Shown here piece after piece: positions 2,798 to 54,397 of a DNA stretch of 62,966 bases. The notes beneath the pieces are model-generated. The model saw only the letters and a program-made list of their open reading frames with translations. It searched no databases and was not told the origin of the DNA. A program made the translations under genes and the position numbers. Source of the stretch: a virus (taxonomy: Duplodnaviria; Caudoviricetes); the IMG/VR virus record IMGVR_UViG_3300033143_001983, positions 1 to 62,966 of that record; one strand, given 5' to 3'. Numbering within the stretch: the stretch's first letter is position 1; each line of letters starts with the position of its first letter.

Positions 2798-3115
2798 ATG
2801 AAAAAATTAATTGAAGCAACTCCATTACTATTGTTACTATCACTAGTACCTTTCCTTTTCTACAGTCAGCCTAATATTGCCCAATCGGTTATATTGTCGG
2901 CAATTGCTGGATTATTCGGATTTACTGTATACTTAGAAAGTCTTAAAAAACCTGACTATGTTAAAATCTTCACAGAAAGGTTAGACGAAAGAGATCTTGA
3001 AAATGACAAGAAGCTTAATATCTTATTAAAAGAGATCGAGGAACTAAGAGCTACTCAGGGTAAATTAAATATTGTAAAAAAGACTGAAGATAGAATTAAA
3101 AACTATAAATGGTAG
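2798..3115 (+). CDS. membrane protein, two TM helices plus coiled coil
   Basis: Two hydrophobic N-terminal segments; AAGGA RBS. Confidence 0.7.
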   Translation: MKKLIEATPLLLLLSLVPFLFYSQPNIAQSVILSAIAGLFGFTVYLESLKKPDYVKIFTERLDERDLENDKKLNILLKEIEELRATQGKLNIVKKTEDRIKNYKW

Positions 3116-3118
3116 AAT

Positions 3119-3280
3119 ATGAAGCCTTACGGAAAAAAAGATAACTGCTGGTGTGATGGACCTCCATATGAGAAGTGTGAGCTATGTTGTCCAAATAGAG
3201 AAGAGAAGCGTCATCTTAAGAAAAAGATTCGTCAAAGGGTTAAAAAAGAAATTAAGAAGGAATTAAATGATGAACGATAA
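3119..3280 (+). CDS. small Cys-rich basic protein (53 aa, not in ORF track)
   Basis: MKPYGKKDNCWCDGPPYEKCELCCP... fills the gap between neighbours. Confidence 0.45.
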   Translation: MKPYGKKDNCWCDGPPYEKCELCCPNREEKRHLKKKIRQRVKKEIKKELNDER

Positions 3281-3626
3281 CTTTGATTTAGGAGAAGCTG
3301 GAAAAGAACTTGAAGCTCTTCAAAAGCGCATAGCAGAACTTGAAGTCGAGAATAGTCGCCTCAAGCATGTTATTGTAGAAAATGAACTAGAAGAAGAAAT
3401 CGAAGGTATTGACTGTACGAGCATTGAAGAGGTTATATGTACACAGGGTATTCGTTACATAGGAAGTTTAGTTGAAGCTCAGGACTTTGATAAATCTGAT
3501 ATACAAAACTTCGACACCCTTTACAAGACTCTAAGGACCATAAGAGGATTGACTACTCCATCTACTAAGAAAAACAAAGTAACTAACGTATCTGAATTAC
3601 TTAAAATAGTAGGAAAAGGCGAGTAA
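3267..3626 (+). CDS. putative terminase small subunit
   Basis: 119-aa coiled-coil protein upstream of TerL, separated only by an HNH gene; function from position only. Confidence 0.4.
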   Translation: MMNDNFDLGEAGKELEALQKRIAELEVENSRLKHVIVENELEEEIEGIDCTSIEEVICTQGIRYIGSLVEAQDFDKSDIQNFDTLYKTLRTIRGLTTPSTKKNKVTNVSELLKIVGKGE

Positions 3627-4222: not shown

Positions 4223-5736
4223 TGACAAAAGAATATGGAGAACCACCTAAAAGCTCTAAGCGTAAAAAGAATATGTCTAGAGAAGCAGCTATCGAAGCTC
4301 TCTGGAGACAGGGAAAACTCGTATGGAAGCTTAAAGGTAAACAGATTGATATTTACGATCACTTCACTGATGATGAAGATGATATAAGTGCCTGTCTAAT
4401 TTCTAGAAGATTTGGTAAATCATTTACATTATGCTTAATCGCCATAGAAAAGTGCTTACAAAATCCTTTCGGAGTTGTTAAGTATGCTTGTCCAAAACAA
4501 AAGCAAGTTGAATCCACTATTAGACCAATTATATTAAAAATAATAAATGATTGCCCAGATGATATAAAGCCAGAATGGAAAACTCAAAGTAAATCGTGGG
4601 TATTTCCTAACGGAGCTGAGATACAAATTGCCGGAACTGATGGTGGGAATTATGACACACTAAGAGGTGGAGCGTCTATCTTATGTATCGCAGATGAAGC
4701 AGCTTTTATGGATGAGTTAGAGACTGTTATTTATTCAGTACTAGCTCCTACCACAGATACAACAGATGGTAAGATACTACTAGCCACTACGCCAAATGAT
4801 AAGGATGCTAACCATGAATTTCATGAGCACTTCTTGCGACCATTTGAAGCAGCAGGTAAGCTCTTAAAGTTCACATATAAAGACTCTCCTATGGTAGACG
4901 AAGCCAAGATGTCAAGAATAATTAAAAGATATCCGGGTGGAGTTAACAATATAAAATTCAGATGTGAGTACCTTTGTGAGATTCCAAACGTAACAGAATC
5001 TAATGTTATTCCAGAATTTGCTCCAATTAAGGATAAGATCGTCAAAGAAGTAGAAACTCCAGATCATTGCGATTTCTACACTTCAATGGATTTAGGTTTC
5101 AAAGATTTAACTGTGGCACTTTTCGGCTACTACGATTTCAGAAACGCTAGGCTAGTAATATTAGATGAATATATAATTAACGGTCCAGATCTGAAAACAG
5201 ACATACTAGATAAAAACATAAGACACAAAGAGGATCTTAGATTTAAAACTACATTAGGATCTCAACCAGCACATTTGAGAGTAATGGATAATAACAACTT
5301 AATGCTTGTAAATGAGCTTACTAAGTCATATGACCTAACTTTTATCCCAACAGCCAAGCATAATAAAGAACAGGCTATAGATACCGTAAGAAGATGGGTT
5401 GAGCAGGAGAAGATAATAATTCACCCAAGATGTGTTAATTTAATATACCACACACAATATGCTCAGTGGCAATTTACCAGATCTGGAACGTCTACAGGGA
5501 AATTCAAGCACTTAAAAGGTAATGATACTGCCGGACTTTTAACGTCACATGCCGATGCTTTGGATGCTTTGATATATATGGTGAGGAATATCCATACATA
5601 CAGAAATCCTTATCCTGAATTTCACGGCATGGATGTAGGTCCAGAAACTCATATAACCAAACATTACCGGGATAATAAAGCGTCCCAAACTATTGATTTA
5701 ATGAGAAAAATCATGAATTTAAAAAAGAAAGCTTGA
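4222..5736 (+). CDS. terL: terminase large subunit
   Basis: Walker A SRRFGKS, Walker B CIADEAAF, coupling motif ATTP, nuclease MDLGFKD and HADALDA. Confidence 0.95.
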   Translation: MTKEYGEPPKSSKRKKNMSREAAIEALWRQGKLVWKLKGKQIDIYDHFTDDEDDISACLISRRFGKSFTLCLIAIEKCLQNPFGVVKYACPKQKQVESTIRPIILKIINDCPDDIKPEWKTQSKSWVFPNGAEIQIAGTDGGNYDTLRGGASILCIADEAAFMDELETVIYSVLAPTTDTTDGKILLATTPNDKDANHEFHEHFLRPFEAAGKLLKFTYKDSPMVDEAKMSRIIKRYPGGVNNIKFRCEYLCEIPNVTESNVIPEFAPIKDKIVKEVETPDHCDFYTSMDLGFKDLTVALFGYYDFRNARLVILDEYIINGPDLKTDILDKNIRHKEDLRFKTTLGSQPAHLRVMDNNNLMLVNELTKSYDLTFIPTAKHNKEQAIDTVRRWVEQEKIIIHPRCVNLIYHTQYAQWQFTRSGTSTGKFKHLKGNDTAGLLTSHADALDALIYMVRNIHTYRNPYPEFHGMDVGPETHITKHYRDNKASQTIDLMRKIMNLKKKA

Positions 5737-42153: not shown

Positions 42154-42182
42154 AGTTTATCAGCTTCGTATTATTTAGTCAA
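42154..42182 (-). promoter_or_regulatory. sigma70-like promoter with extended -10
   Basis: TTGACT-17 nt-TAAACT with TG, immediately after HNH stop. Confidence 0.55.
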
Positions 42183-42190
42183 CATATTCT

Positions 42191-42715
42191 TCATACATGT
42201 TTCCATGTTACTCTTTTTGTTATCTTTGTTATATTAGAAGTATTTGTTTGAAACATATCTGCTATTTCATAATTTTTTAAATTACTAGATTTGTGTAATT
42301 TTCGTATCTCCAGCACATCTTTTTCTGATAACTTAGACATTCCATGTGAGATTCCTTTTGTAGGGTCTTTCAGATTATTATCATATGAATGTTTTATATT
42401 ATACATACAATCACACCACTCTAAATTAGTAAAGTGATTGTTTAATTTATTACCGTCTATATGATTTACTTGATCTAGATTATTGTCATTTTCTATAAAA
42501 GACTCCGCTACTAACCTGTGTACTTTTTTGCTTTTAGTTAAGATAGATACTCTAGGATATCCAGCAGACAATGATTGAGATAAGCTCTTTCCTTTATAAA
42601 ATCTTAAAGTACCATCATTAAGCATTACAGTTCTATCTAGTCTTTTAACATTACCTAAATTACTTACTTCATAAATACCCTCATATCCGACCACACTTGC
42701 CCACTCTTCAGTCAT
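42191..42715 (-). CDS. NUMOD4-HNH homing endonuclease
   Basis: EEW..V.GYEGIYEVSNLG.VK (NUMOD4), VHRLVA..F, VNHIDGNKLNN...NLEW, C-terminal HTH. Confidence 0.92.
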   Translation of the reverse strand: MTEEWASVVGYEGIYEVSNLGNVKRLDRTVMLNDGTLRFYKGKSLSQSLSAGYPRVSILTKSKKVHRLVAESFIENDNNLDQVNHIDGNKLNNHFTNLEWCDCMYNIKHSYDNNLKDPTKGISHGMSKLSEKDVLEIRKLHKSSNLKNYEIADMFQTNTSNITKITKRVTWKHV

Positions 42716-44870: not shown

Positions 44871-45824
44871 TTACCTCGGATTTTTTCTAAATTTCTTTCT
44901 CTTAGCACCTTTTAGTAAGTTATCTGTATCTCTGTACTCTGCGCCACAATTCGTACATTTGTACTTCTGAAACTTTGAAGCATTTGTGAAGTAGAATCCA
45001 CTCTTTTTAAAGTCGGTACTTCCACAGCTACATACATCTTCATCAAAATATATTGAGAAGTTAATTGAATCATCCCAAGGAATTAGAATTTCGTATAATT
45101 CTTCCAGAGATAAAACGTCTAATTTATTATAATCTTCCATTTCTTGAAAAGCTTCAACATTACCCTTCATACACTCTGACCATAATTTAAATCCCGGAAA
45201 CTTAGCATGACCTGACTTCTTATATTTCGTACATAACTTGTCCGTCATATATTCTAACTTATTACTAGTGAAGCTGAAGTGTCTCTTAGCAATTAGAAGT
45301 GTGTCGATTTGTCTGAATGAACTTGGCGGTTTCATCCCATGCATAATGAATCTTGCATTAAGCTTTTTAACGTCAAACTTCTTAGAGTTTTGCCCAATTA
45401 CGATATCTGCGGCATCTAGAAGCTTCCAGATACTCTTTAAAATCTTCTTATCATCCTCAAAGTCTTTTGCATCTCTTTGATCTTCATATAATACTTCGTC
45501 GCTATCATACCATTTTGCTGCCCAACTAAGAACGTGCCAATCTTTTTCGATCATATTTAAACCAACATTATTATCCCATAACTTCCATACAGAAGCAATA
45601 ATAGGTACTGTCTCGATATCAAAGAACAAGATGTTTGGAGCGTCTTTTCTTTTATTGATAGAAATGACAGGTATCTTATATCTTTCAAAAGTTTTTCTCA
45701 CAGCATTTGGAGAGTGTTTAGTACCAAACCTATGATTAATTCTAGCAGCAATCTGATCATATGTGTAATCGTCATACAGCTCTAATAACATGTCAATTTG
45801 TGCTTGACTCCATTTTTTACTCAT
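44871..45824 (-). CDS. RNase H-like 3'-5' exonuclease with N-terminal HTH and C-terminal Zn ribbon
   Basis: FDIET, GQN.KKFD, YN..DV, CSCGS...CTNCG; GGAG RBS favours ATG 45824. Confidence 0.85.
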   Translation of the reverse strand: MSKKWSQAQIDMLLELYDDYTYDQIAARINHRFGTKHSPNAVRKTFERYKIPVISINKRKDAPNILFFDIETVPIIASVWKLWDNNVGLNMIEKDWHVLSWAAKWYDSDEVLYEDQRDAKDFEDDKKILKSIWKLLDAADIVIGQNSKKFDVKKLNARFIMHGMKPPSSFRQIDTLLIAKRHFSFTSNKLEYMTDKLCTKYKKSGHAKFPGFKLWSECMKGNVEAFQEMEDYNKLDVLSLEELYEILIPWDDSINFSIYFDEDVCSCGSTDFKKSGFYFTNASKFQKYKCTNCGAEYRDTDNLLKGAKRKKFRKNPR

Positions 45825-45837
45825 CGTAACTCCATTG

Positions 45838-45876
45838 TTAACTTTTGCTTTGGATTTCAAGACCTATGCCGAATCC
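45838..45876 (-). repeat. orphan synonymous duplicate of the 3' end of gene 46455..46691
   Basis: Encodes GFGIGLEIQSKS-stop, same peptide as 46455-46493, 10 of 39 nt differ and all are synonymous. Confidence 0.9.
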
Positions 45877-45889
45877 ACAGCTATACTTA

Positions 45890-45918
45890 ATATTAATCTA
45901 AATAATTTATATTGTCAA
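45890..45918 (-). promoter_or_regulatory. sigma70-like promoter at 3' end of HNH cassette
   Basis: TTGACA-17 nt-TAATAT. Confidence 0.55.
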
Positions 45919-45924
45919 CATAAT

Positions 45925-46455
45925 TTATATATGTTTCCAAGTTTTTCTTAGTTTTATATTACTTACTGCTTGTCTAGTTATATTGTAATCCTTTGCTATT
46001 ACTGTTCCGTTTTCTCCACTTTCTAATCTCTTTCTTATGTATATTATATCATCTTTTTTAAGGTTAGTTTTTCCGCTACATTCCCCTTTGGCAGTATAAA
46101 CTCCTATAAAATGAGCATGTTGTATATTTTCTTTATGAGTACACCATTCTAAATTAGATACGTGGTTATTTTGTTTATTTAAATCTTTATGATTAACAAA
46201 ATACTTTCCTTTTATTTTTGATAAAAACGCCCTAGCTACTAAAATATGTACTCTTATTGTGTGTTTTTTATGATGCTTGCTCAGATATACGCAAGGGTAT
46301 CCAGTATTCAGAGGTGTTTTTAGAATTTTTCCTTTGTAGTTATATACTTTAGAATCTTTTCCTAGAACCGTTCTATCTAGGCTTTTAACTCTACCTTTAT
46401 TACTAACCTGATAAAATCCTTCAAAACCTTCGATATCTTTCCAGATCTCTTTCAT
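45925..46455 (-). CDS. NUMOD4-HNH homing endonuclease
   Basis: EIWKDIEGFEGFYQVSNKGRVKS, VHILVARAF, VNHKDLNKQNNHVSNLEW. Confidence 0.92.
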   Translation of the reverse strand: MKEIWKDIEGFEGFYQVSNKGRVKSLDRTVLGKDSKVYNYKGKILKTPLNTGYPCVYLSKHHKKHTIRVHILVARAFLSKIKGKYFVNHKDLNKQNNHVSNLEWCTHKENIQHAHFIGVYTAKGECSGKTNLKKDDIIYIRKRLESGENGTVIAKDYNITRQAVSNIKLRKTWKHI

Positions 46456-46691
46456 TATGATTTACTCTGTATCTCTAGACCTATTCCAAATCCTAAGATT
46501 CTAAAAGCCATATTAAAGTAAATGTTATTTGTTACGATTAATATTTTTGTTGGAAAACTCAACATATATGATTTATGCTCATTTCCAAACATATTTATAG
46601 TTTTGCTCCTGTTAATCTCAGGGAACGTCATATAAAGACGGTAGTAATACCCTCTATTAGCGTAATCTCCACCAGATATAAGATTAATCAT
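46455..46691 (-). CDS. hypothetical protein, probable HNH target gene
   Basis: 78 aa; C-terminal 12 codons duplicated beyond the HNH gene. Confidence 0.75.
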   Translation of the reverse strand: MINLISGGDYANRGYYYRLYMTFPEINRSKTINMFGNEHKSYMLSFPTKILIVTNNIYFNMAFRILGFGIGLEIQSKS

Positions 46692-46893
46692 CTTCCGACT
46701 CCCATTCGTTCAATCGCTCATATCCAGATGATACTTCGGGTATTGCAAATGTCCTTTTTGTATACTCTGGAGGTAACATTCCTTTATCTACTAGAAAAGC
46801 AAGCAATTTATCAGCTACATATGGCTCTAAATATCCACCATCATAGTATTTGACAAATTCTACCACATCCTTTACTAAATCACTTTTTTTCAT
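46684..46893 (-). CDS. hypothetical protein, paralogue of 43645..43872
   Basis: GMLPP...WESE motifs. Confidence 0.7.
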   Translation of the reverse strand: MKKSDLVKDVVEFVKYYDGGYLEPYVADKLLAFLVDKGMLPPEYTKRTFAIPEVSSGYERLNEWESEDD

Positions 46894-47152
46894 TTCCCAC
46901 CATCTTTCCTAGAGCCAATGCTTTATAATACCTAGCTTCTTCATATAACTTTCTAGCTCGTTTATGTGCGTCGATAAGTGAAAGAAGGGTATTGATCTTA
47001 TCTTTTCTTAGAATAAGCTGTGATTGATATAACGCCCTTAATTCATTAGGTCTTTTATCTTTTGTTAATATCCTTTTATAGAACTTTTGAGAAGATTCTA
47101 AATCCTTAAGACGCTTCACAGCTTCATCGTAACTTAGTAATTTATTATTCAT
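46880..47152 (-). CDS. hypothetical basic protein
   Basis: 90 aa in packed operon. Confidence 0.65.
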   Translation of the reverse strand: MNNKLLSYDEAVKRLKDLESSQKFYKRILTKDKRPNELRALYQSQLILRKDKINTLLSLIDAHKRARKLYEEARYYKALALGKMVGNEKK

Positions 47153-47827
47153 TTAAATCTCCACTACTATAGGTTCATTTGTCGGGTCATATTGCTCTGT
47201 GCAAATTGCAGCATTTACAAAAGTTGTATCTACTATTTTATCAATTCCATGCCAATTATGAATGTGTCCGAATATATGATATTTAGGACTAATATCCAGT
47301 ACTCTGTTTAAAAGATGCTTACATCCACAATTTTCCATACTATAAATAGAAACATCCATTACACCGCTTGGGGGTCCATGAGTTATAATAACATCTGTAT
47401 CGTCAGGAATCATATCCCAATAAGGTTGAATCGGATCGTATTTTTCTTCTAAATGATGATAAGAAGTTCCGCAATCTCCAGAATCCCTATTCCATGCCCA
47501 ATTATGAAATCTAGGAGTAACCCCACTTCCCCAGAACTTAATTCCGCCAAGAGTTATTCCAGTATTATTTAGGTAGATTATATTTCTAGCAGCACATTCT
47601 TGCTTTACTAGATCCTCATTCTGCTCAGTAATCATATCGTGATTCCCCGGCACATATATAATATGAAGGTATTTTGCTCTTAGTTTGTCAAGTTCATTTA
47701 CGAATTTCATAAATTCTGTTAAAGTGCCTCTAGATAAAGCATCTCCAGCATGGACTAAGATATCACCATCTGGTAATTTAACCTTTCGCAAGTTACAATG
47801 TGTGTCAGAAATGCACACAATTTTCAT
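47153..47827 (-). CDS. calcineurin-like metallophosphoesterase
   Basis: SDTH, HAGD, PGNHD, THGPP, FGHIH. Confidence 0.93.
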   Translation of the reverse strand: MKIVCISDTHCNLRKVKLPDGDILVHAGDALSRGTLTEFMKFVNELDKLRAKYLHIIYVPGNHDMITEQNEDLVKQECAARNIIYLNNTGITLGGIKFWGSGVTPRFHNWAWNRDSGDCGTSYHHLEEKYDPIQPYWDMIPDDTDVIITHGPPSGVMDVSIYSMENCGCKHLLNRVLDISPKYHIFGHIHNWHGIDKIVDTTFVNAAICTEQYDPTNEPIVVEI

Positions 47828-53105: not shown

Positions 53106-53540
53106 TTATAATTCCTCCAGCACTTCTCTAGCGAGTTTTTCTAGTTGCTTAATATTTTTCATTTTATGAACACCGTTTTTGTCAGTATAATCAATCCAGT
53201 ATTCATGTTCACTATCTGCATATACACCAAGTGCTTTCTTCATTTTTCTATAAGCTCCAAGAACTTCCTTCAATTTAAACTCTGCATTTTCTCTCTGCAA
53301 GTCCAGCATCTTTATTTTGTCGGCTAATTGCGCATTAGCTTCTTTTAGTACAGTAGCTTTGTCTAAACTTTCTCTCATCAACTGGTAGTAGTGGTTTTGA
53401 TCTTTTGCTGCAATTAAATTCTGCTCTAATTCATATACTACATCTTCTAACCTCTCTACTGAGTCTACAATCAAACAAAACTCTGCACTAGCTATTTGTT
53501 GTCTTTCTGCGAATTCATCAAGCTTCTCGTATAATTTCAC
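53106..53540 (-). CDS. coiled-coil hypothetical protein
   Basis: 144 aa, heptad pattern. Confidence 0.7.
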   Translation of the reverse strand: MKLYEKLDEFAERQQIASAEFCLIVDSVERLEDVVYELEQNLIAAKDQNHYYQLMRESLDKATVLKEANAQLADKIKMLDLQRENAEFKLKEVLGAYRKMKKALGVYADSEHEYWIDYTDKNGVHKMKNIKQLEKLAREVLEEL

Positions 53541-54397
53541 TATAATTCCTCCCTAGCTTCATAACCTTCTTCAACAATCTTATTCACCATGTAAGATACT
53601 TTTGAAGTTACATCGTATGGATATAAATTATAAAACACTTCTTTAATTCTGTCAATATCTAAATTCATCAAACCGCAGGTAAATAAGAAGCTGTTTCCTC
53701 TAGCGTACATTTCTCCTGCAAGTCCGTCATGAGCGTTCTCTAAGAAGTAGGCAATTGTGTCAGGAATCTTAGCCTTTTGTTCGCCATATAAAGCCTCTAC
53801 AAGCTCTTCAATTGAATCTCCTACCACTACGTTATCTTTATGCTCAAAACGCTTTATTTCGCCCTTTTTAGGCTTCTCAGCAGGTGTTGGCTCTAGTAGA
53901 TCCGCATCATACCAGAATCCGTCAACGACTCGTCCACCAAAGAAGAAACGTGCAGTATCTCCAATGCATGATGGGTCAGCAGGAAAGTGTTCGGCTAGTT
54001 TCAGCATTGTTGCTTCAAAGTCTGGTTTATTCGTAATTGATTTAGCTAGTGGGAATATTAGTCGGAACTTATGATGCTCCTCGCTATGAGAAGTGCTCGG
54101 CAAACATAGTGTTGCAATATCTAATTGATGCACTACTTTTTCTGCTTCATCAATAGTCATACCGTCATCAATATCAAGTACCATGAAATCAGTTGCTAAG
54201 AAGTTGTGCTGGTTTCGATAAGCACTAAATATGCTCGGACTCCATGCATTGCTACATATAGTCTCGATAAGCTGCTCACTTGTCGCCACTTCTATTACTT
54301 CTGGATAATGTGGCTTAGACGTATACCATGCTTCTTTGGATTTCTCTTCCTTAGACTCTGGTAGTGCCTTAGCTTTGGAAAATATACTCAATTTCAT
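53540..54397 (-). CDS. AEP/PrimPol-type primase
   Basis: WSP, VLDIDDG, STSH...KFRLIFPL, D.SC...ARFF. Confidence 0.8.
   Translation of the reverse strand: MKLSIFSKAKALPESKEEKSKEAWYTSKPHYPEVIEVATSEQLIETICSNAWSPSIFSAYRNQHNFLATDFMVLDIDDGMTIDEAEKVVHQLDIATLCLPSTSHSEEHHKFRLIFPLAKSITNKPDFEATMLKLAEHFPADPSCIGDTARFFFGGRVVDGFWYDADLLEPTPAEKPKKGEIKRFEHKDNVVVGDSIEELVEALYGEQKAKIPDTIAYFLENAHDGLAGEMYARGNSFLFTCGLMNLDIDRIKEVFYNLYPYDVTSKVSYMVNKIVEEGYEAREEL

Follow-up and report, generated by a model that had tools for sequence, protein, structure and literature searches.

Organization of the Locus

The DNA analysed here, referred to as the window, spans all 62,966 bases of one virus record, in which a terminase, a portal protein, a family A DNA polymerase and nucleotide-metabolism genes are present. 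The subject is a free-standing gene for a putative HNH homing endonuclease, encoded on the minus strand directly behind a gene for a 78-amino-acid protein (the host gene) and ahead of a gene for an exonuclease. The 3' end of the host gene is found twice, once on either side of the endonuclease gene. The endonuclease gene is probably part of a cassette that supplied the host gene with a replacement end, with the displaced native end (the orphan) retained behind it. The features of the locus are the following.

46455..46691, minus strand: host gene, an open reading frame (ORF) for a 78-amino-acid protein
46455..46538, minus strand: working (cassette-side) copy of the gene end, codons 52-78 and stop; predicted replacement end, with a putative left limit
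46533..46538, minus strand: ATCGTA (codons I52 V53), where HNH-free relatives have the -35 hexamer; promoter predicted to be inactive in this copy
46515..46510, minus strand: TAATAT, still present in the working copy
45925..46455, minus strand: putative free-standing HNH homing endonuclease gene, 176 amino acids, I-HmuI-like (Pfam, PHROG and 1U3E matches)
45877..45918, minus strand: 5' portion of the orphan, corresponding to native codons 52-66 and likely to act as promoter for the exonuclease gene (promoter hexamers, alignment with locus L086)
45918..45913 and 45895..45890, minus strand: TTGACA and TAATAT of the orphan, separated by a 17-base spacer
45838..45876, minus strand: predicted displaced native end, last 12 codons and stop (39 bases)
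45830..45833, minus strand: GGAG, ribosome-binding site of the downstream gene, as read from the sequence; a GGAG context also occurs in loci L085, L087 and L086
44871..45824, minus strand: downstream gene, a DNA polymerase exonuclease subunit, RNase H-like, 317 amino acids from the ATG at 45824

On the minus strand, 46493..46455 and 45876..45838 are two 39-base stretches with the same translation, GFGIGLEIQSKS-stop. An earlier note on this DNA had described them as synonymously recoded copies of one gene end, and they are. The first comprises the final 12 codons and the stop of the 78-amino-acid ORF (46691..46455), and this stop overlaps the start of the HNH gene as TAATG. The second has an intact reading frame, and no start codon is present between the last in-frame stop and these 39 bases. 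On its 3' side, four bases, GGAG and five further bases lead to the ATG of the 317-amino-acid gene, whose product matches PF13482 (E 2.4e-10) and phrog_403 (E 6e-102).

Between the copies, 10/39 bases differ, distributed over 8 of the 13 codons, with no replacement; the last Ser codon is changed at all three bases, and no identical run exceeds 8 bases. In a scan with a degenerate pattern for GFGIGLEIQS, only these two places in the window matched, and 0/100 dinucleotide-preserving shuffles did. The duplicated gene end is genuine and not a product of chance. Just 24 of the 117 possible single substitutions of the 39-base stretch are synonymous, and none of 300,000 simulations, with 10 random substitutions each, retained the peptide and stop. 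Because random substitution did not reproduce all-synonymous differences in these simulations, the two copies cannot have diverged in place.

The Endonuclease Gene

In the 176-amino-acid ORF, Pfam identified NUMOD4 (68.6 bits, cut-off 23.4) and HNH_3 (40.8 bits, cut-off 24.8), and a weak C-terminal helix-turn-helix is also visible. The protein corresponds to phrog_59 (E 1.5e-53). The sole solved structure matched by its sequence is 1U3E (I-HmuI; E 4.2e-14, residues 5-165), and the HNH core (around NHKD...NN...N) aligns with that of I-HmuI. These matches, together with the intact 78-amino-acid gene upstream, bear out the earlier assignment of an HNH homing endonuclease behind a complete host gene. 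Endonuclease activity is predicted for the protein.

A group I intron- or intein-borne endonuclease was considered and rejected, as no Rfam family exceeded its threshold in 45300..47200 and the host ORF stops before the HNH start. The single row returned for this interval was a chance-level small nucleolar RNA (E 0.49).

Among the best 80 of the 272 relatives of the HNH protein in viral contigs, the best match is 50% identical, and only one, at locus L006, has the host-gene motif alongside. Most of the HNH relatives therefore appear to reside at other loci.

The Host Protein and Its Relatives without the Endonuclease

The 78-amino-acid protein has no Pfam or PHROG family match. Its AlphaFold2 model (predicted local distance difference test, pLDDT, 89.1) is all-beta with seven strands, and the best Foldseek match in the PDB reached only E 0.43. 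Four relatives were found in the protein collection, at 56-72% identity. The length of the protein is 78 amino acids in 12/14 aligned family members, the other two having 79 and 81. The terminal motif GFGxGLEI is present in 14/14, and the working copy of the window ends with the same motif.

DNA was available for 12 distinct loci; the HNH gene is absent in nine of them, intact in two and present as a remnant in one. The nine HNH-free loci, referred to as natives, are L001, L085, L087, L088, L091, L092, L093, L105 and L138. Several contigs are redundant: L001 is identical in L084, L089 and L090, L085 also occurs as L127, and L006 is the same contig as L156. A wider motif scan returned 88 stretches, mostly due to chance, in which the family members were L084, L105, L127, L138, L154 (an end fragment) and L156. 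Six natives encode 78 amino acids, L093 encodes 79 and L088 encodes 81; L091 is readable only from residue 3.

Each of the nine natives has a gene end consisting of GFGxGLEI and a few more residues; 0-13 bases separate it from the next gene, and an HNH gene is lacking. The neighbour is the exonuclease gene in L087, L092 and L093 and a different gene elsewhere. A stop, a short spacer and the next gene succeed each other in L085, L087, L092 and L093, and the spacer contains GGAG in L085 and L087. The 3' spacer, GGAG and ATG of the window orphan resemble those of L085 and L087. From each of these two, the 39-base orphan differs at 6/39 bases, and the differences are synonymous or fall at variable residues. 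Since the orphan is continuous with a native-type spacer, GGAG and next gene, it stands in the native context, which argues that the upstream copy, the HNH gene and the part following it are the insertion.

Closer relatives of the whole locus were sought in GenBank, where 290 phage records matched; these were rejected as close relatives, as only the exonuclease gene or HNH-like parts are covered, at 60-95% identity and at most 22% of the query. In viral contigs, the exonuclease protein was found at three distant loci (41-56% identity).

A Promoter-Like Site Embedded in the Native Gene End

The end of the native gene contains a promoter-like arrangement at a fixed place. From 45 bases ahead of the GGN-TTY-GGN motif, a -35 hexamer, a 17-base spacer and a -10 hexamer follow each other. 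All nine natives have this spacing, and each hexamer has at least 5/6 matches; TTGACA and TAATAT are exact in six, and the other three have one mismatch (TTGACG with TAGTAT, TTGATC, TTGACT). The -35 hexamer coincides with codons 52-53 (Leu-Thr), and the -10 hexamer spans codons 59-61. The Leu codon at the -35 position is TTG in 9/9 natives, although TTG accounts for only 10-12% of Leu codons in these phages. This codon choice and the hexamer pattern point to a constraint on the DNA itself.

In the window, the corresponding site, TTGACA-N17-TAATAT (45918..45890, a 10/12 match), is located in the upstream part of the orphan, 36 bases ahead of the GGATTY motif, compared with 39 in the natives. 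The orphan sequence 45912..45877 is noncoding: it contains in-frame TAA and TAG and is three bases (one codon) shorter, with hexamers and spacing kept. Exact TTGACA-N16-18-TAWWAT sites occur twice in the window, against 0.42 expected. The segment 45877..45918 is thus likely the predicted promoter of the exonuclease gene. No unusual RNA fold was found in the orphan leader (z-score -0.35).

As the promoter hexamers lie within native codons 52-61, the orphan would begin at about codon 52 and not at codon 67. By this comparison the displaced copy comprises approximately 27 codons (45918..45838), with the predicted junction near codon 51/52. Two earlier proposals have to be given up in consequence, namely that the promoter came as cargo of the cassette, since 9/9 native genes embed it at codons 52-61, and that the insertion occurred near codon 67, since the displaced copy extends upstream through the promoter-like site.

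The gene following the 78-amino-acid gene varies (L001, L006, L085, L088, L091, L105 and L138), with conserved upstream synteny; the exonuclease gene, a 413- or 238-amino-acid phosphoesterase, a 616-amino-acid protein and others are encountered in this position. The gene end with its embedded promoter would therefore be a boundary of mosaic exchange.

The other exact TTGACA-N16-18-TAWWAT site of the window is found at 53627..53655 (minus strand), inside the 3' part of ORF 54397..53540 and upstream of the gene at 53540..53106. This might be another gene end with a promoter inside it.

Two Further Instances of the Element

In L006, the 78-amino-acid gene is followed by an intact HNH gene, 45% identical to that of the window and with the same first eight residues, and by an orphan reading LTIRSIYCNIVIKLLGFGMGLEIHSRRFK-stop. 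The first bases of this orphan are TTGACA, and it overlaps the start of a phosphoesterase gene, the next gene at this locus. The orphan differs from the HNH-free sibling L138 at 17/75 bases and from its own working copy at 27/75; the working copy differs from L138 at 22/75. Its promoter-bearing segment is recognizable as native coding sequence (z 6.1). The usual HNH stop is lost in L006 and the ORF (3001..3549) runs five codons into the TTGACA of the orphan, so that the endonuclease gene and the -35 hexamer overlap.

In L086, no HNH ORF is present at the site. The 35 bases between the stop of the 78-amino-acid gene and TTGACA match the 3' end of the window HNH gene (z 4.0, 4/1000 shuffles) and, more weakly, that of L006 (z 2.7); they match neither the 5' end nor the middle of the window HNH gene (z 0.1 and -0.6). 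The segment after the promoter reads LLTK-stop-FIYTNIIFRIL and is identical to native L001 at 31/42 bases (z 5.3). A decayed 39-base orphan (GFYLEIEIRSKN-stop), a ribosome site and the exonuclease gene follow. L086 seems to represent a form of this element from which the endonuclease gene has been deleted, the promoter-bearing orphan being spared.

This locus also provides an intermediate for the window. The promoter segment of the window aligns with its L086 counterpart (z 3.0, 4/1000 shuffles), and an in-frame TAA occurs at the same codon in both.

Proposed Origin of the Replacement End

The cassette-side copies have all lost the -35 hexamer, which reads ATCGTA in the window, TTAGTA in L086 and ATAGTT in L006. 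In the working copy of the window it matches at just 2/6 positions, and the spacer and -10 are identical to those of native L093 over 23 bases; the change of the -35 is therefore local. Residue 53 is Val in the cassette-side copies, and Thr or Ile in the natives with DNA and in the four database proteins.

The two parts of the host protein have diverged unequally at two of the three loci. Between L086 and the database protein P0004, 5/46 residues differ in positions 2-47 and 15/31 in positions 48-78 (p 4e-4). For L006 and L138, the corresponding numbers are 4/46 and 9/31 (p 0.03). Asymmetry was seen in 0/5 native-native pairs. For the window and P0002, 12/46 and 10/31 residues differ, which is not significant. 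A different ancestry of the replacement end is thus supported at 2/3 loci, as far as such comparisons can tell, and is not demonstrable for the window. The earlier statement that the cassette supplied a recoded end and displaced the original is therefore upheld in part: the orphan is in native context, but the foreign nature of the end cannot be demonstrated in the window itself.

We consider it probable that the I-HmuI-like HNH gene is a cassette in the 3' part of a conserved 78-amino-acid phage gene, to which it brought a replacement gene end. The last third of the native gene would double as promoter, leader and ribosome site for the next gene. At the occupied locus these two roles appear to be split: the upstream copy codes and lacks the -35, and the displaced copy, no longer coding upstream of codon 67, still has both hexamers at their spacing, together with the leader and the ribosome site. 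In the proposed sequence of events, the enzyme would nick or cut the native gene end, and a carrier would serve as the template from which repair copies both the HNH gene and the replacement end. The original insertion may have been one-sided or illegitimate on the right, leaving the native end in place. The orphan would be maintained for its part in driving and initiating the next gene, and the signals kept there (promoter, leader and ribosome site) would explain its retention. Loss of the -35 from the working copy might remove a strong promoter ahead of the endonuclease gene, provide self-protection, or both.

Several points weigh against this reading. A close HNH-free relative of the phage was not found, the best proteins being 71-72% identical and without DNA. 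The window shows no asymmetry between the N- and C-terminal parts in comparison with P0002 and P0003, at an identity (71-72%) that limits the power of the comparison, and the cut point at residue 47 was picked after the alignment had been inspected. The Val 53 shared by the cassette-side copies could reflect common descent or convergence. The nine natives are mutually related, and the 9/9 counts are thus not independent. Direct comparison of the promoter segment of the window gives no significant similarity with the coding sequence of natives (ungapped z -1.4 to 1.6) or with L006 (z 0.8); its presumed homology rests on position and on L086 as intermediate. Finally, the codons of the natives point only weakly to the orphan as the native end. 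Over 39 bases, the orphan is the closer copy for six natives and the upstream copy for two (L088 and L138), with one tie; over the first 30 bases, the counts are five and four, and much of the signal is due to the last Ser codon. The check proposed earlier, to see which copy HNH-free relatives carry, gave an orphan-like majority that is weak evidence by itself.

Four other explanations were weighed. The one that survives best, although it is improbable, is the narrower model of the earlier note, in which a single recent insertion at codon 67 brought a 12-codon end, the HNH gene and its own promoter, only 12 codons being duplicated. It would account for the fact that clear similarity between the copies in the window begins at the GGA of codon 67, and that the 36 bases ahead of this point are not significantly native-like when compared directly. 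However, the hexamers are at the native position with nearly native spacing (36 against 39 bases, with the 17-base spacer). L086 and L006 share the arrangement, and the segment is there recognizably native coding sequence (31/42, z 5.3 and 6.1), to which the window is connected by its alignment with L086 (z 3.0). Moreover, the promoter is inside the gene in all natives and lost from all cassette-side copies.

It is considerably less likely that the upstream copy is the native end, and that the downstream copy and promoter were imported with the HNH gene. L088 and L138 (2/9) over 39 bases and 4/9 natives over the first 30 are nearer to the upstream copy, and the identity of its spacer and -10 with those of L093 would fit as well. 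The native spacer, ribosome site and next gene, on the contrary, adjoin the downstream copy, and natives always have the -35 that the upstream copy lacks. In L006, it is the orphan, and not the working copy, that matches sibling L138 (17 against 22 of 75 bases differ). A cassette ending in a fragment of the host gene would, furthermore, need an origin in a broken gene.

An in-place tandem duplication at HNH insertion, followed by divergence, with neither a foreign end nor a later exchange, would be the simplest origin of a direct repeat around an insertion. It is slightly less credible still: the 10/10 synonymous differences, including the three-base Ser switch, were reproduced in none of the 300,000 simulations, and an unselected orphan would have gained replacements, as that of L086 did. 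Nor would it account for an orphan decayed upstream of codon 67 and intact in the last 39 bases.

A chimeric assembly from two strains, conceivable in a metagenome-derived virus record, can practically be dismissed, as the architecture recurs in two other contigs (L006 and L086), the 78-amino-acid and HNH genes are joined, with 6 differences, on a 321-base contig from run X1 (possibly the source of the window), and a chimera needs long identical words at the joint, where the copies share 8 bases at most.

Age of the Cassette and Predicted Position of the Target

The earlier note had regarded the insertion as recent and the orphan as undecayed. The first view is not tenable, given that L006 has the same architecture and L086 appears to be an HNH-deleted derivative with a decayed orphan. 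The second holds for the last 39 bases, which are pristine, and fails for the part upstream of codon 67, which is decayed. Between the window and L086, identity amounts to 61-74% in each segment compared, from the host gene through the HNH remnant, promoter and orphan to the exonuclease gene, and the third codon positions of the latter are identical at 142/314. As the identity is alike throughout, the cassette would be as old as the split between these phages; it is old, and common to the window, L006 and L086. Recent horizontal transfer linking the window and L086 was rejected for the cassette, which has an identity similar to that of its flanks.

Upstream of codon 67, the orphan of the window is scrambled except for the promoter hexamers; the last 39 bases are not. 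They were probably functional until recently, because without selection an orphan this old would be expected to have lost its coding pattern, as that of L086 has. Most plausibly, these 39 bases, and with them presumably the exonuclease gene, belonged to a working native gene up to a recent time. The right edge of an exchange with a naive genome would then be at 45877/45876, and a homing event would produce exactly such a boundary. From this edge, the cut site in the native gene would be expected no further downstream than codon 67. A target region around codons 50-56 is suggested by the changed -35 codons and by the junction at codon 51/52. In sum, the target of the enzyme is predicted near codons 50-67.

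These elements can be combined in a more specific scenario, which is offered tentatively and is rather doubtful as a whole. The target would be constrained twice, as coding sequence and as promoter, and the cassette would escape its own enzyme by splitting the two roles between two copies, the replacement end being free to lose the -35 and the displaced end free to decay as coding sequence. The loss of the -35 could be at once the change that gives immunity and the silencing of a strong promoter ahead of the endonuclease gene, and 45877/45876 would be the edge of the latest homing event and bound the cut site.

Clean excision of the cassette by recombination between the copies, as once envisaged, is unlikely because the shared run is just 8 bases and the only intact promoter would be lost with it. 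The natural loss in L086 went another way. None of the contigs of one DNA run (0.14 of sampled words) joins across the cassette, a result that is uninformative on excised forms.

Comparison with Known Mobile Elements

I-HmuI of Bacillus phage SPO1 (1U3E) is a nicking enzyme and is encoded in a group I intron of a DNA polymerase gene. The window protein shares its N-terminal module and HNH core. Unlike I-HmuI, no intron was detected here (45300..47200), and the host protein is complete without splicing.

A hybrid atp6 gene in Allomyces was reportedly described by Paquin in 1994. Mobile endonuclease ORFs (mORFs) of fungal mitochondria have been presented for Glomus atp6, atp9, cox2 and nad3, which carry a foreign C-terminus, with the Allomyces macrogynus atp6 hybrid as model (PMC3630166). 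Similar C-terminal duplications are reported for Phlebia cox2, Ophiostoma rps3 and Endoconidiophora cob and atp6 (PMC4019555, PMC6279837). As far as the available text of these papers goes, the likeness covers the core of the host gene, the in-frame replacement C-terminus, the endonuclease ORF and the displaced native C-terminus. In the window, the replacement end restores a full-length 78-amino-acid product in frame, as in the mORF type, and in both the window and L006 the HNH ORF is directly 3' of the new end, with the displaced native end downstream. On the contrary, the host is here a phage and not an organelle, and the enzyme is of the HNH type, not LAGLIDADG or GIY-YIG. The displaced end, moreover, is apparently kept as the source of signals for the next gene (embedded promoter, leader and ribosome site); no such role is attributed to mORF remnants in the available portions of PMC3630166, PMC4019555 and PMC6279837.

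Among phage elements, the seg and mob endonucleases of T4-like phages are free-standing between phage genes and are inherited with flanking markers by intronless homing (PMC2988022). More generally, free-standing phage endonucleases are described between intact genes, with co-conversion of flanks and promoters within or behind them (PMC2988022, PMC10448857). In T4, promoters of downstream genes are located within or just behind an endonuclease gene, for example between mobE and nrdB, and one-sided, illegitimate break repair has been described for T4 introns as a route to new sites (PMC2988022). The window HNH gene resembles seg and mob in being free-standing between phage genes with a promoter behind it. 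As depicted in the available text of these sources, the T4 elements sit between intact genes and replace no gene end, whereas the window element would replace one, and the promoter behind the window HNH gene, unlike theirs, would derive from displaced host coding sequence. The string 'duplicat' has no occurrence in the available text of the review PMC2988022. Full-text literature searches returned no phage case of a replaced gene end with a retained orphan, which is not proof that none is in print.

The principle is thus known from organelles; what is added is the phage setting, the split between coding and promoter roles, and three natural stages. An invasion route with a substitute gene end, so far described for fungal mitochondria in the literature searched, would now be found in a phage, together with a reason for keeping the displaced end, on which the next gene would depend for promoter and translation signals. 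The stages of the life cycle would be an intact endonuclease with a fresh orphan, an intact one with a longer orphan, and a lost endonuclease with a decayed orphan. The system is testable, with a predicted target (native codons ~50-67) and a predicted immunity change (the -35 codons). For annotation, the lesson is that a short 'intergenic promoter' behind a phage endonuclease gene may be what is left of a neighbouring gene.

Other HNH Genes

A different short HNH-type ORF of 89 amino acids, with a motif around HIDHIIP, is present in L086 at 5321..5590, directly 3' of the exonuclease gene. No counterpart was seen at the matching position of the window.

The window contains a second NUMOD4-type HNH gene (42191..42715, minus strand, 174 amino acids), 40% identical to the first and located 3' of a dATP/dGTP diphosphohydrolase-like gene. 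The only relative of this upstream gene (L184) has a different downstream gene. Behind the second HNH gene, a promoter-like TTGACT-N17-TAAACT (42154..42182) stands just ahead of the next gene. The bases following the second HNH gene loosely resemble the 3' end of the upstream gene and might represent another orphan.

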